DNA from: an uncultured Gammaproteobacteria bacterium
GTDB taxonomy: Bacteria > Patescibacteriota > Patescibacteriia > Magasanikbacterales > JBBTQS01
Length of the DNA: 46,532 bases
Assembly (NCBI GenBank): GCA_964554065.1
Contig: CAZKMQ010000001.1
Span: 1-46,532, forward strand
Direction of reading: 5' to 3'
In this document: in pieces, positions 3,160 through 15,754 of the stretch
Numbering within the stretch: position 1 is the first letter of the stretch
How the letters are laid out: each line of letters opens with the position of its first letter
Position numbers and translations under genes: made by a program
Notes under the pieces: generated by a model
Database searches by the model: none
Seen by the model: only the letters and a program-made list of their open reading frames with translations
Told to the model about the DNA's origin: nothing

Positions 3160-3459
3160 ATGGCTATGAAGTTGACCAAAGAAGATATTGCAAAAATTGC
3201 AAAATTAGCAAGATTGTCATTGACTGATGAAGAGGCTGCCAGATATCAGGAGCAGTTATCTTCTGTTTTGGAATATATGGATGTCTTAAATGAGGCAGAT
3301 ACGTCAAAAGTGGAGATTACATCACAGGTTACTGGTCTTGAAGATGTGTTTCGCGAGGATGTTGTTGATGCATGTAAAGAAGATGAGCGAGATTTGATTA
3401 TCGGACAATTTCCAGAAAGTAAGGACTTTGGCTTGAAGGTTCCTGCAGTGCTTGAGTAA
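3160..3459 (+). CDS. gatC: Asp/Glu-tRNA(Asn/Gln) amidotransferase subunit C
   Basis: The 99-aa product reads 'MAMKLTKEDIAKIAKLARLSLTDEE...' and lies directly upstream of gatA. I chose the internal ATG at 3160 because the upstream part of the 2914 ORF overlaps the antisense small gene and has no GatC similarity. Confidence 0.85.
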   Translation: MAMKLTKEDIAKIAKLARLSLTDEEAARYQEQLSSVLEYMDVLNEADTSKVEITSQVTGLEDVFREDVVDACKEDERDLIIGQFPESKDFGLKVPAVLE

Positions 3460-3460
3460 T

Positions 3461-4900
3461 ATGACCATCACAGAACTTTCAGCAAAATTAAAGAATAAGG
3501 AGCTCAGTAGTGTTGAGTTAACACAGCAGTATTTGGATGCTGCAAAAAAACATAATGAAACTATTAATGCATACATTACGATTTGCGAAGATGAAGCATT
3601 GGCAATGGCTAAGAGCGCGGATGAAATGCTGGCAAGTGGTAATGAGCACGCGCTTACAGGTATTCCACTCGGTGTAAAAGATGCAATCTGTACAAAAGGG
3701 ATTCGTAGTACTGGGGCAGCAAAGATTCTTGATCAGTATGTACCGCCATATGATGCAACAGTGATTAAAAAAATTAAAGAAAAGGGTGGTGTGATTATTG
3801 GAAAGCAGAATTGTGACGCTTTCGGTCATGGTGGTTCAAATGAAAACACACAATATGGTGTTGTGAAAAATCCATGGAACACTGAAAAAGTTCCTGGCGG
3901 AAGTAGTGGTGGATCTGCTGCATCTTTAGCAGCTGGTATGTGCGCATACTCAATTGGAGAAGATACCGGTGGTTCAATTCGTCAGCCTGCAGCTTTGTGT
4001 GGCGTGACTGGTTTGCGTCCAAGTTATGGTCGCAATTCACGTTATGGAATTATGCCAATGGCATCCTCGCTTGATACGGTTGGGCCAATGGCGAATTCAG
4101 TTGAAGATATTGCAACAATAATGGAAGTGATGGCAGGGCAAGATAAGATGGATGCAACGACTGTGGCAGATGCCGTGCCAAATTATATCAATGAGATAAA
4201 AAAACCTCTTGAGAAAATGACTATTGGTTTGCCAAAGGAGTATTTTACTGGTGAAACTGATGCTGATGTAAGTAAGGCAATAGATGTTGCAATTGAAGAG
4301 TATAAGAAACTAGGGTGTACATTTAAAGAAGTGAGCCTTCCACACACTAAATACGCTGTTGCTACGTATTATATTGTGGTTCCATCAGAAGACAGTAGTA
4401 ATCTTGCGCGACTGGATGGTATTAGATATGGATCTCGTGGTAAAGGAAAGGATTTGTTCGATGTATATGCTAATGCTCGAGCCGCAGGATTCCCAGATGA
4501 GTGTAAGCGTAGAATTATGATTGGAACATATGCACTGTCTGCTGGATATTACGATGCATATTATAAGAAAGCACAGAAAGTGCGTACATTAATCAAAAAA
4601 GACTTTGAAGATGCGCTAAAAGATGTTGATGCGCTTATTAAGCCGGTTTCACCAACCACAGCATGGGATATTGGTTCGTTAGTAAACGATCCACTGAAGA
4701 TGTACATGGCTGATGTGTTTGTTATACCCGGAGCTCTTGCTGGAGTGCCAGGATTAGCTGTGCCCTGTGGAATTGATAGTAGCGGATTGCCGATTGGTTT
4801 GCAGATTATTGGACCGCGCATGGCAGAATCGCGTATAATGCAGTTAGGCTATCATTACCAGCAGAATACTGACTGGCATACTAAAAAGCCTTCATTGTAA
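3461..4900 (+). CDS. gatA: Asp/Glu-tRNA(Asn/Gln) amidotransferase subunit A (amidase family)
   Basis: The amidase signature 'GGSSGGSAASLAAG' and 'GEDTGGSIRQPA' are present. The ATG at 3461 gives 'MTITELSAKL', and the TTG at 3452 is an alternative start. Confidence 0.93.
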   Translation: MTITELSAKLKNKELSSVELTQQYLDAAKKHNETINAYITICEDEALAMAKSADEMLASGNEHALTGIPLGVKDAICTKGIRSTGAAKILDQYVPPYDATVIKKIKEKGGVIIGKQNCDAFGHGGSNENTQYGVVKNPWNTEKVPGGSSGGSAASLAAGMCAYSIGEDTGGSIRQPAALCGVTGLRPSYGRNSRYGIMPMASSLDTVGPMANSVEDIATIMEVMAGQDKMDATTVADAVPNYINEIKKPLEKMTIGLPKEYFTGETDADVSKAIDVAIEEYKKLGCTFKEVSLPHTKYAVATYYIVVPSEDSSNLARLDGIRYGSRGKGKDLFDVYANARAAGFPDECKRRIMIGTYALSAGYYDAYYKKAQKVRTLIKKDFEDALKDVDALIKPVSPTTAWDIGSLVNDPLKMYMADVFVIPGALAGVPGLAVPCGIDSSGLPIGLQIIGPRMAESRIMQLGYHYQQNTDWHTKKPSL

Positions 4901-7731: not shown

Positions 7732-7816
7732 GGAGAGGTGGCTGAGTGGTTTAAGGCGCCGCCTTGGAAAGGCGGTGGGGTTCACGCCCTCGCAGGTTCA
7801 AATCCTGTCCTCTCCG
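7732..7816 (+). tRNA. tRNA-Ser(GGA), class II with long variable arm
   Basis: The cloverleaf was folded by hand. Acceptor is GGAGAGG/CCTCTCC and the D stem is GCT/GGC. The anticodon stem CCGCC/GGCGG closes the loop TTGGAAA. There is a 16-nt variable arm, a T arm GCAGG-TTCAAAT-CCTGT and discriminator G. CCA is not encoded. Confidence 0.92.
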
Positions 7817-7826
7817 CTAAAAAAAA

Positions 7827-14325: not shown

Positions 14326-14826
14326 ATGGGGTATATTCATGCAATTAAAGGAACAGTCATCGCACTTGTTGTTTTTGGTGTGCTCGCGTGGTTTGTTGGT
14401 GATTTGCAGCGAGAATCTGAAGGTATTGAGGTGATTCTAACAATTAGTACGTTCTTATTTGCGATATTGGCTGGGTTTTTCATTTCTCGGCTAAACGATC
14501 GATACAACAACATTAAATACTTATTTCCGCTAATTCTCTGCACTCTTATGCTGGGAGCTGGGTGCACAGAGGCTAGTAATGAAATAAAATATACAGATGC
14601 AGATGTTGTTCAGTATGGTGATCCTCGTGCTAAGGAATGTCATATAGAGCAATGTCATCCAAGTACTGGAGATGTGAGTTGTGGTTCAAAATCAGAAGGT
14701 AAATGTAAGTATGTGCTTACAAAAGGTGATGTTTGTGCAACTGATCACATCAAGTGCGTTGTTGTAGAAGGGGAATGCCACACAGTGGGTATTAGAGATT
14801 TTGAACAATGTGAATCTGGACAATAA
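14326..14826 (+). CDS. Composite hypothetical protein: 2-TM N-terminal segment fused to an internal lipobox and a Cys-rich domain
   Basis: The 166-aa ORF starts with residues 1-64, which form two TM helices ending 'FFISRLNDRYNNI'. These are followed by a signal-peptide-like segment 'LFPLILCTLMLGAGC' and then an 8-Cys soluble domain. Confidence 0.5.
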   Translation: MGYIHAIKGTVIALVVFGVLAWFVGDLQRESEGIEVILTISTFLFAILAGFFISRLNDRYNNIKYLFPLILCTLMLGAGCTEASNEIKYTDADVVQYGDPRAKECHIEQCHPSTGDVSCGSKSEGKCKYVLTKGDVCATDHIKCVVVEGECHTVGIRDFEQCESGQ

Positions 14827-14832
14827 TTCTGT

Positions 14833-14860
14833 TTGACAAATTTCAAAAAGAGCGTACAAT
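14833..14860 (+). promoter_or_regulatory. Sigma-70-type promoter candidate for the tRNA-Asn gene
   Basis: TTGACA (14833-14838), a 16-nt spacer and TACAAT (14855-14860) lie about 30 nt upstream of the tRNA 5' end. The element overlaps the terminator hairpin of the upstream gene. Confidence 0.4.
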
Positions 14861-14877
14861 AATGGTGCGTTCTTTTT
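14845..14877 (+). terminator. Rho-independent terminator candidate
   Basis: AAAAAGAGCGTAC (14845-14857) pairs with GTGCGTTCTTTTT (14865-14877). That gives 13 bp including two G.U pairs, a 7-nt loop and a 3' arm ending in a U-run. Confidence 0.5.
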
Positions 14878-14889
14878 GATACAAAAAAT

Positions 14890-15200
14890 TCCGAGGTAGC
14901 TCAGCGGTAGAGCAGTTGGCTGTGAATTAACGCAGCTTCCGTTAGAAATGACGGTCGAATAATGAGGTGAATTGCTGGAAGCCTAAATCTAGTATCGGAC
15001 TAGATATGGTAATCAGCAGCCAAGCCCAATGCAGGGAAGGTTCAGAGACTATCCTATATGGAGTACTGTTTCGATCTATATCGAGATGGGAAGCGCCTCA
15101 CATCCTAGCGCAAGCAGGATGATGATATAGTCCACGCCACATGGAAACATGAGGATTACGTGTAACCAATTGGCCGCCGGTTCGAATCCGGCCCTCGGAG
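14890..15200 (+). tRNA. tRNA-Asn(GUU) interrupted by a group I intron (exons 14890-14923 and 15163-15200)
   Basis: The joined exons give a 72-nt cloverleaf. Acceptor is TCCGAGG/CCTCGGA and the D arm is GCTC-AGCGGTA-GAGC. The anticodon stem GTTGG/CCAAT closes the loop CTGT|TAA. The variable loop is TGGCC, the T arm is GCCGG-TTCGAAT-CCGGC and the discriminator is G. U1-A72 plus G73 match bacterial tRNA-Asn. Confidence 0.85.
14924..15162 (+). ncRNA. Group I self-splicing intron, IC3-like, no ORF
   Basis: It carries sequence blocks I recall from tRNA IC3 introns. These are GCCTAAATCTAG (14981-14992), AGCCAAGCC (15018-15026) and GGTTCAGAGACTA (15039-15051), the last pairing with ATAGTCC (15127-15133). 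Exon GGCTGT pairs with intron GCAGCT (14932-14937), placing a U.G wobble at the 5' splice site. The terminal nucleotide is G (15162). A GCAA-capped hairpin lies at 15101-15121. Confidence 0.8.
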
Positions 15201-15205
15201 CATAC

Positions 15206-15240
15206 AAAAGAATAACCCCAATATGGGGTTATTCTTTTGT
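15206..15240 (+). terminator. Rho-independent terminator after tRNA-Asn
   Basis: AAAAGAATAACCCC (15206-15219) pairs perfectly with GGGGTTATTCTTTT (15225-15238). That is 14 bp with a 5-nt loop and a U-run. Confidence 0.8.
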
Positions 15241-15385: not shown

Positions 15386-15754
15386 ATGGCAGAAAAACCA
15401 TGTTTTTGTGGACGACCTCATGCGCGAGGTGCGTGTACACAAGATGAATTTACCGTGTTGGACACTCCAGACCTTGCAATTTCACTTACTTCGTCACATG
15501 GCGGAGAAAAAGAGCATGCACTTATTCTTGATTTTGAGGATACGGTTTCTTCAGAAGATGCAAATAGCGCAACAATTACACTTGAAGTTGACGGTAAGAC
15601 TCATGCAATGGATCGTGATGAAAGTATGCCCGGCTCATATGCAATTCCACTATCAGAATTTGGAGATGTGTCATCAGGTCAAGAAGCAAAAGTAAAAATA
15701 ACCTTACCAAACGGTGAAGTTACTGAACACACATTTAATATTGGTTTGAAGTAG
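15386..15754 (+). CDS. Hypothetical protein
   Basis: A 122-aa ORF with an N-terminal 'CFCGRPHARGAC' segment and then an acidic, beta-rich-looking sequence. I recognise no family. Confidence 0.5.
   Translation: MAEKPCFCGRPHARGACTQDEFTVLDTPDLAISLTSSHGGEKEHALILDFEDTVSSEDANSATITLEVDGKTHAMDRDESMPGSYAIPLSEFGDVSSGQEAKVKITLPNGEVTEHTFNIGLK

Follow-up and report, generated by a model that had tools for sequence, protein, structure and literature searches.

An IA2-like group I intron inside the anticodon of a tRNA-Asn(GUU) gene from a probable Patescibacteria genome

A bacterial tRNA gene that is interrupted within its own anticodon raises the question of which tRNA it encodes, what kind of element has interrupted it, and whether the cell can obtain a usable tRNA from it. 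We consider this question for positions 14890–15200 of contig CAZKMQ010000001.1 (assembly GCA_964554065.1, deposited as an uncultured Gammaproteobacteria bacterium); the whole stretch analysed, 46,532 nt long, is called the window here, and the elements of the split gene and its flanking sites described below all lie on its forward (+) strand. A first-pass annotation, made from the letters of the sequence, had proposed a tRNA-Asn(GUU) gene carrying a group I intron between anticodon nucleotides 35 and 36. Its sequence and coordinates matched exactly when we re-checked them, and the proposal itself was borne out by an Rfam match together with the ARAGORN program. We consider it highly probable that 14890–15200 is one transcription unit for a tRNA-Asn(GUU) precursor, split by an intact, phage-like IA2 ribozyme of homing origin that has no open reading frame (ORF), in a Patescibacteria host.

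The split gene and its splice sites

The 5' exon (14890–14923) contains the acceptor 5' strand, the D arm, the anticodon stem 5' strand and C32 U33 G34 U35, and the 3' exon (15163–15200) contains U36 A37 A38, the anticodon stem 3' strand, the variable loop, the T arm, the acceptor 3' strand and G73, the CCA end not being encoded. When the two exons were joined in silico, as the first-pass annotation had joined them, ARAGORN recognised a canonical tRNA-Asn(GUU) cloverleaf with U1-A72 and G73, the predicted spliced junction reading ...GGCUGU/UAACCAAU.... The insertion point is CUGU/UAA, that is, after the fourth nucleotide of the anticodon loop, with U at position -1 and G at the last (omega) position of the intron. 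In the raw window ARAGORN assigned only a tRNA-Ser(GGA) at 7732–7817, and no second tRNA-Asn was found in these 46.5 kb.

For comparison, relatives were collected by scanning species-representative genomes with a pattern composed of the P7 3' strand of the intron, G/TAA and the T arm; the counts given below come from the 121 matches listed and are lower bounds. At least 98 tRNA-Asn genes split as CTGT/intron/TAA were found (98 of the 121, the window copy included). CTGT ends the 5' exon in all 98, U1-A72 is kept in 97 with one U-G, and G73 is present in every one. The spliced window tRNA is identical at 66 of 72 positions to the best intronless tRNA-Asn listed at the same rpoD-adjacent locus.

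The search against Rfam that had been proposed with the first-pass annotation gave a full-length match to Intron_gpI (RF00028) at 14846–15154 (+), with 93.4 bits against a gathering score of 50 and an E-value of 7.1e-23, and this is the sole intron match in the whole window. The P3–P9 core is aligned with high posterior probability, and the 5' end of the alignment is misplaced on an upstream hairpin. We have rejected P1 as placed by Rfam at the hairpin 14850–14873, because the actual P1 is built with the anticodon loop, and a promoter-like site lies partly in the upstream sequence. The precursor folds with -113.4 kcal/mol (z = -4.78 against shuffled sequences) into a structure containing the acceptor, D, P1, P2, P3, P4-P5, P7.2 and P8 helices, and this strong energy relative to the shuffles indicates that the fold is not due to chance.

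P1 is formed by 14918–14924, namely the exon sequence GGCUGU and the first intron nucleotide G1, with the guide CGCAGCU at 14931–14937, closing an L1 loop of 6 nt. The 5' splice site is marked by the wobble U14923·G14932 (U35·G); this wobble, the terminal G of the intron and the P7 pairing, all of which had been pointed out in the first reading, are present in the window sequence. CUGU/GCAG of P1 is invariant in all 32 aligned introns. The first intron nucleotide varies among the 98 split genes (G in 59, C in 21, A in 17 and U in 1), and in the alignments the base preceding the guide complements it (tabulated as GC 13, AU 5 and GU 2).

The position of this wobble bears on the identity of the gene. 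When ARAGORN was allowed to search for introns (option -i) in the unspliced sequence, it assigned a tRNA-Thr(tgt) with a 239-nt intron at 32–33, and likewise in many relatives; both splice sites are then shifted by 2 nt, with the intron after U33 (GGCU/GUGAA...UUACG/UGUAACC), and the boundaries of such a tRNA-Thr(UGU) also follow a U and end in G. In that reading, however, U33 pairs with A in P1, while the U·G falls on U35, where it is invariant in the 32 introns, and the nucleotide complemented by the base preceding the guide is the first intron nucleotide of the Asn reading. Furthermore, the aforementioned U1-A72 and G73 occur not only in the split genes but also in intronless genes with the loop CUGUUAA at the rpoD-adjacent locus, and the isotype-scoring pipeline of Williams maps the class as Asn.4Ug (10.1101/2020.01.27.920355). 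On the basis of the wobble position, guide complementarity, U1-A72/G73 and the intronless orthologous loci, we have rejected the threonine splice-site call, and regard a tRNA-Thr as extremely improbable.

Structure and subgroup of the intron

The intron (14924–15162) is 239 nt long and contains no ORF, as had been noted at the outset; it is delimited by the RF00028 match, by its structure and by covariation. The structure was examined in relatives sharing the architecture of the window copy (type A, defined by a regular expression that requires a P7.1 hairpin and an AGUA junction), by placing a hand-drawn structure on a MAFFT-based alignment of 32 such introns and comparing it with 500 shuffles and with slid controls. 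Paired cells amounted to 83.2% against 70.6% in the shuffles, the covariation score was 0.346 against 0.141 and was reached by 0 of the 500 shuffles, and 49 of 79 pairs changed on both sides. RNAalifold, run without the hand-drawn structure, recovered P1, P2, P3, P4, P5, P6, P6a, P7.1, P7.2, P8 and P9.0, with 39 of 55 predicted pairs compensated. It also predicted the anticodon stem of the tRNA, whose strands lie in exon 1 and exon 2 on either side of the intron (columns 2–4 with 336–338), with the pair types UA/CG, GC/CG and GC/CG/AU.

The helices can be followed from the 5' end. P2 (CCGUUA-GAAA-UGACGG, 14939–14954) is capped by a GNRA tetraloop L2, which is a GNRA loop in most relatives as well; all 6 of its pairs show compensatory changes and 94.8% of its cells are paired. 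P3, which belongs to the P3/P7 pseudoknot of the core, is formed by UGAGGUG (14963–14969) and CGCCUCA (15094–15100), a pairing given by covariation and by RNAalifold, with 98.2% of cells paired and 4 of 7 pairs changed on both sides. The P4-P5-P5a domain occupies 14973–15018 (P4 UGCUGG/UCAGCA, P5 GCC/GGU); P4 and P5 are 94.4% paired, with 5 of 9 pairs changed on both sides. P6 and P6a follow at 15019–15041, as GCC...GGU around CCC-AAUGCA-GGG, P6 being paired in 100% of cells and P6a having compensatory changes in 3 of 3 pairs. The conserved blocks on which the first-pass annotation had relied are all present, and each can be assigned to a group I element: GCCUAAAUCUAG is P5 with a tetraloop-receptor-like motif (CCUAAA...UAUGG, resembling the 11-nt GAAA-tetraloop receptor), AGCCAAGCC is P4'/P6, and GGUUCAGAGACUA, paired with UAGUCC, is P6'/J6-7/P7.

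P7 is the guanosine-binding helix of group I introns. Its 5' strand G(A)GACUA (15045–15051, with bulged A15046) pairs with UAGUCC at 15128–15133 in agreement with the Rfam core alignment and, although it lies outside the search pattern, does not vary in any of 56 aligned introns. Between P7 and the 3' strand of P3 lie the hairpin P7.1 (UCC-UAUAU-GGA, 15052–15062), a GUA linker (15063–15065) that joins it to P7.2, and the 10-bp hairpin P7.2 (CUGUUUCGAU-CUAU-AUCGAGAUGG, 15066–15089); this module of 38 nt (15052–15089) is followed by a 4-nt joiner GAAG, which reaches to 15093 and leads into P3'. The P7.1 stem covaries (CCC/GGG, CUC/GAG, CCU/AGG). Among the 64 parsed introns no two have the same P7.2 sequence, and every P7.2 forms a single hairpin, with a median z of -3.5; we judged this helix by folding of individual sequences and by RNAalifold, because the MAFFT columns of P5a and P7.2 are misaligned (57% and 44% paired).

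The GCAA-capped hairpin mentioned in the first reading is P8 (CAUCCU(A)GC-GCAA-GCAGGAUG, 15101–15121), in which 6 of 7 pairs change on both sides and the proximal 5 pairs are kept. According to the Rfam alignment it is followed by J8/7, AUGAUA, and the P7 3' strand UAGUCC (together 15122–15133). P9.0 pairs ACG (15134–15136) with CGU (15159–15161), as found by covariation and RNAalifold, with 3 of 3 pairs changed on both sides, and P9 (CCACAUG-GAAA-CAUGAGG, 15137–15154) has a GAAA loop L9 and 6 of 7 pairs so changed. The intron ends with the terminal G at 15162, after which UAA follows. In the window copy no core helix is disrupted; its sole non-canonical pair is one A·A in P9. A GAAA loop at L9 was associated with a relaxed CYUAA motif in P5 in 20 of 38 introns, against 4 of 22 for GUAA, GCAA and GGAA loops (Fisher p = 0.013); this association is modest, lies in the expected direction and depends on the relaxed definition, the strict 11-nt receptor definition giving 8 cases only, and we take it as suggestive.

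The intron had been described as IC3-like at first, and this part of the description has not stood. P7 is joined almost directly to P3' in IC3 introns, and the IC3 seeds in Williams' alignment have about 3 nt there (10.1101/2020.01.27.920355), whereas two hairpins and GAAG (15052–15093) intervene in the window copy. According to the general subgroup scheme (PMC3984707) and, specifically, the criterion stated for subgroup IA2, namely P7.1 and P7.2 linked by G-U-A (PMC3428280), this P7.1-GUA-P7.2 arrangement is that of IA2. In global alignment the window intron scores 190 with the Leu.1Ug seed, 179 with Asn.4Ug and 166 with Lys.2Ug, while the four IC3 seeds score 111–128, and a BLAST search of the core found introns of phage DNA-polymerase and ribonucleotide reductase genes, with 73–80% identity over P3–P7. 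On account of the module, the lower IC3 seed scores and the phage-like core, the intron is not IC3-like; we call it IA2-like, a structural call rather than an assignment by a subgroup model. A core-only pattern (GGTTCAGAGACTA..GATATAGTC) was rejected as unspecific for tRNA introns; the core motif is abundant in viral contigs.

The intron nevertheless resembles the classical IC3 tRNA introns in many points: both are small ribozymes in a tRNA anticodon loop, form P1 from the anticodon loop and stem with a U·G wobble, have a GNRA-looped P2, a GAAA loop L9 and a CCUAA...UAUGG-type motif in P5, and share the core blocks GCCAAG and GAGACUA...AUAGUCC. It differs from them in residing in another tRNA and at another loop position (35/36), in the 38-nt module where IC3 introns have about 3 nt, and in J3/4 AAU and J8/7 AUGAUA, for which IC3 has AAGGxA. 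With phage IA2 introns, such as the DNA-polymerase intron of cyanophage Pf-WMP3 (PMC3428280), it shares P7.1 and P7.2 joined by G-U-A, and its relatives carry HNH homing endonucleases as phage introns do. In contrast to these, it interrupts a cellular tRNA gene instead of a protein-coding gene of a phage, and it possesses P2; the window copy is also free of any ORF, and relatives that have one carry it in the P1 loop and not in P6a.

Distribution, mobility and history of the insertion site

The first-pass annotation was not aware of any such intron in tRNA-Asn or in a genome of this small type. The class had, however, been listed in 2020 as Asn.4Ug, and the aforementioned split genes, at least 98, add to it. 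A preprint by Williams (10.1101/2020.01.27.920355) distinguished 21 classes of tRNA group I introns where 4 had been known, and includes in its seed alignment Pam37.Asn.4Ug, which has the same gene and the same site. The window intron shows what defines Asn.4Ug: tRNA-Asn, insertion after the fourth loop nucleotide, U at -1 and omega G. Compared with that seed, it has the same tRNA-Asn(GUU), CUGU/UAA insertion, U at -1 and terminal G, as well as extra structure between P7 and P3', P3' AGCGCC and J8/7 AUGAxAUAGUCC, with 73% identity over the aligned positions and 66% of the window query covered. The difference is that the module between P7 and P3' is one long hairpin in the seed and P7.1-GUA-P7.2 in the window copy; the preprint describes neither this architecture nor endonuclease-bearing forms of Asn.4Ug. 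The Tyr.4Ug and Asp.4Ug seeds in the same alignment share the CUGU 5' context with Asn.4Ug, all three belonging to G34 (queuosine-family) tRNAs, and, judging from this common context, one guide sequence could serve several tRNA targets.

Other literature touches on the class. Lui et al. (2021) reported group I introns in some tRNAs of circularised genomes of the candidate phyla radiation (CPR) (PMC8172020), and we found nothing in their supplements on which tRNAs carry them; tRNAscan-SE 2.0 treats only the fMet and Ile2 intron cases. Group I introns of CPR 16S and 23S rRNA genes (Brown et al., 2015 and Tsurumaki et al., 2024, as cited in PMC11809585) are alike in host lineage and in that structural-RNA genes of tiny genomes are invaded by self-splicing introns, often with homing endonucleases, and differ in having rRNA targets, mostly LAGLIDADG endonucleases and much longer introns. 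The window intron is thus one further example of a known, thinly documented class. A 2025 preprint by Nakagawa et al. reportedly deals with group I introns in Patescibacteria tRNA genes.

Hosts of the listed split genes are mostly Patescibacteria metagenome-assembled genomes (MAGs), including Parcubacteria/Paceibacterota, Saccharibacteria, Microgenomates, Peregrinibacteria and others, and a few are labelled Omnitrophota, Elusimicrobia, Planctomycetes or "Gammaproteobacteria". Their introns are bimodal in length, 72 having 180–345 nt and 26 having 511–630 nt, and fall into three architectures: type A (67 introns), a compact type B without P7.1 and P7.2, similar to the Tyr.4Ug and Thr.2Ug seeds of Williams (19 introns), and a minor group of others (12 introns), with one long hairpin between P7 and P3' like the Asn.4Ug seed. 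The closest listed relative of the window intron is only about 77% identical to it. Type B introns, which read GGGAUAACGGUGAA...CCGUAGAGACUAGAUACC and were recorded by locus at 15 places, occupy the same tRNA-Asn 35/36 site and sometimes even the same rpoD-adjacent locus, which points to independent invasions or replacement. Apart from cellular genomes, tRNA-Asn-like genes split as CTGT/TAA by introns of 218–544 nt were observed on five viral contigs, one of them 543 kb long, and a tRNA-Lys(UUU) split as CTTT/TAA on a sixth; some of these contigs may be mis-binned CPR DNA.

No intron-encoded homing endonuclease is present in the window copy, with its 239 nt, 6-nt L1 and no ORF. Of the 26 long introns, 23 encode an HNH protein of about 100 amino acids, type A and type B being both represented. 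It has the motifs CxxC...HH...CANCH and matches phrog_2255 with an E-value of 4e-30, its Pfam HNH match of 18 bits being below the family cut-off. Of 17 long type-A introns checked, 16 have the insertion in L1, the loop that separates the 5' splice site from the internal guide, and at the long-intron loci the HNH ORF was seen in the P1 loop in both ribozyme types. Since the guide sequence ACGCAGCTTCC encodes the conserved C-terminal TQLP of the HNH protein, protein and ribozyme constrain the same bases.

The gene order dnaG-rpoD-tRNA-Asn with the intron was found at 37 of the listed loci, with RpoD 48–73% identical to that of the window, the best RpoD among them being from Parcubacteria bacterium ARS125. 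The same order without the intron was found at 13 or more metagenome loci (RpoD 59–77% identical), where the tRNA-Asn has the loop CUGUUAA, U1-A72 and G73. Presence and absence of the intron at orthologous loci show the site to be polymorphic, which is what a homing element that is gained and lost would be expected to produce. An intronless copy with exons identical to those of the window was not among the metagenome matches listed, which numbered at least 120.

Host, splicing and meaning for asparagine decoding

The window encodes LigA, GatA, DnaG, RpoD, MetG and other housekeeping proteins; it is cellular and not viral. An identical 501-nt region occurs in three independent metagenome assemblies. 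The host is, judging from its RpoD and gene order, most probably a Patescibacteria (CPR) bacterium; introns of this class are common in that group. Nine "uncultured Gammaproteobacteria" MAGs (binchicken) with the same split tRNA-Asn were noted, and RpoD on such loci, where found, is 62–71% identical to that of the window; the "Gammaproteobacteria" labels of these MAGs look wrong. U1-A72 of tRNA-Asn is an identity element for GatCAB. A gatA gene lies at 3452–4900 (TIGR00132, 569 bits), and Asn-tRNA may be made by the indirect pathway in this host.

A sigma-70-like promoter (TTGACA-16 nt-TACAAT, 14833–14860; 11 of 12 consensus matches) precedes the 5' end of the tRNA by 30 nt, and a scan found an intrinsic-terminator-like hairpin of 17 pairs directly 3' of the tRNA (15204–15240); by these consensus matches, the two sites would frame the split tRNA as its own transcription unit. 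Another hairpin, GAGCGUAC...GUGCGUUC followed by UUUUU (14846–14878), shares bases with the -10 element of this promoter-like site and could be the terminator of the upstream ORF. The two ORFs flanking the tRNA, 14326–14826 (166 aa) and 15386–15754 (122 aa), had no Pfam or NCBIfam match.

We have mapped the splicing steps from the general group I mechanism, the standard two-step pathway initiated by guanosine (PMC3984707). The transcript would fold so that P1 presents U35·G, and exogenous guanosine bound in P7 would attack the 5' splice site; terminal G15162, placed by P9.0, would then take the place of the guanosine in the same P7 site, and the freed 3'-OH of U35 would attack the bond after G15162, ligating the exons into a 72-nt tRNA, which would be trimmed by RNase P before addition of the CCA end. 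The fold is probably held together by the GNRA loops L2 and L9 and the P5 receptor-like motif, in the way known from other small group I introns of bacteria. The selfish element would have reached the tRNA-Asn gene by homing, its same-site relatives still holding the HNH gene in the P1 loop, and since the ribozyme of the window copy is intact though without an ORF, the host tRNA should stay functional. We infer that the intron splices itself and that its splicing would be essential if the cell has no other tRNA-Asn gene; the split gene appears genuine and apparently functional.

Several points weigh against this picture. P10 is weak, consisting of UAA of the 3' exon with UUA in L1, with a 2-nt gap to P1. 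The covariation values were clearly above those of the slid controls, a comparison in which the tested structure was favoured because it had been drawn on the window sequence and the alignments were MAFFT-based. The P7 3' strand, the J8/7 segment and the omega G were preset by the search pattern, so that their invariance in relatives is uninformative. The assignment of the host is based on 73% RpoD identity and a gene order in common with a Parcubacteria MAG, not on phylogeny, and the absence of another tRNA-Asn covers the 46.5 kb in view.

The last of these points and the weak P10 bear on whether the copy is a decaying pseudogene, its intron no longer splicing and the cell being supplied by an intact tRNA-Asn elsewhere: the genome outside the window leaves room for a second gene, and the endonuclease ORF of the relatives has been lost here. 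Against such decay, the core helices and conserved joining segments are all intact, the exons give a perfect cloverleaf between the promoter-like and terminator-like sites, the sequence is the same in the three assemblies, and 37 species-level genomes among the matches listed keep the split gene next to rpoD, its conserved position. Moreover, no other tRNA-Asn is present within the window, and in the work of Lui et al. the tRNA sets of circular CPR genomes became complete only when tRNAs with introns were counted (PMC8172020). We therefore hold a pseudogene to be very unlikely.

The weak P10 is also compatible with an intron that is functional but not autonomous in vivo, either needing a host protein (a chaperone or an aminoacyl-tRNA-synthetase-like cofactor) or giving mainly circular or hydrolysed products, so that the supply of tRNA-Asn would be regulated; some group I introns do require protein cofactors (PMC3984707). 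The window intron has, on the other hand, the full stabilising set of small self-splicing bacterial and phage introns, with P2, P7.1/P7.2, P9.0, GNRA loops and the receptor-like motif, and no candidate maturase is encoded in it or next to it. Such dependence seems to us improbable, and autonomous self-splicing of the tRNA-Asn precursor is the reading that we prefer.

Taken by itself, this single case teaches little beyond the 2020 survey and the approximately 100 relatives listed here. It is a further sign that self-splicing introns are tolerated in the essential RNA genes of tiny CPR genomes, and it shows that the tRNA introns of bacteria extend beyond IC3. It is also relevant to genome annotation, because ARAGORN misses the split tRNA-Asn by default and mislabels it as tRNA-Thr when introns are allowed; when standard tRNA finders miss such a gene, genomes seem to be without tRNA-Asn, and estimates of their completeness and coding capacity are distorted. 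A broader picture, which we regard as possible and put forward tentatively, is that position 35/36 of tRNA-Asn in Patescibacteria is a long-standing hot spot, repeatedly colonised by at least two ribozyme architectures (IA2-like and compact) that share one HNH family with a guide-encoded C-terminus, the split gene being the only tRNA-Asn; as far as we could find, it has not been laid out in the peer-reviewed literature. If it is true, the decoding of every Asn codon in these minimal genomes would depend on a ribozyme.

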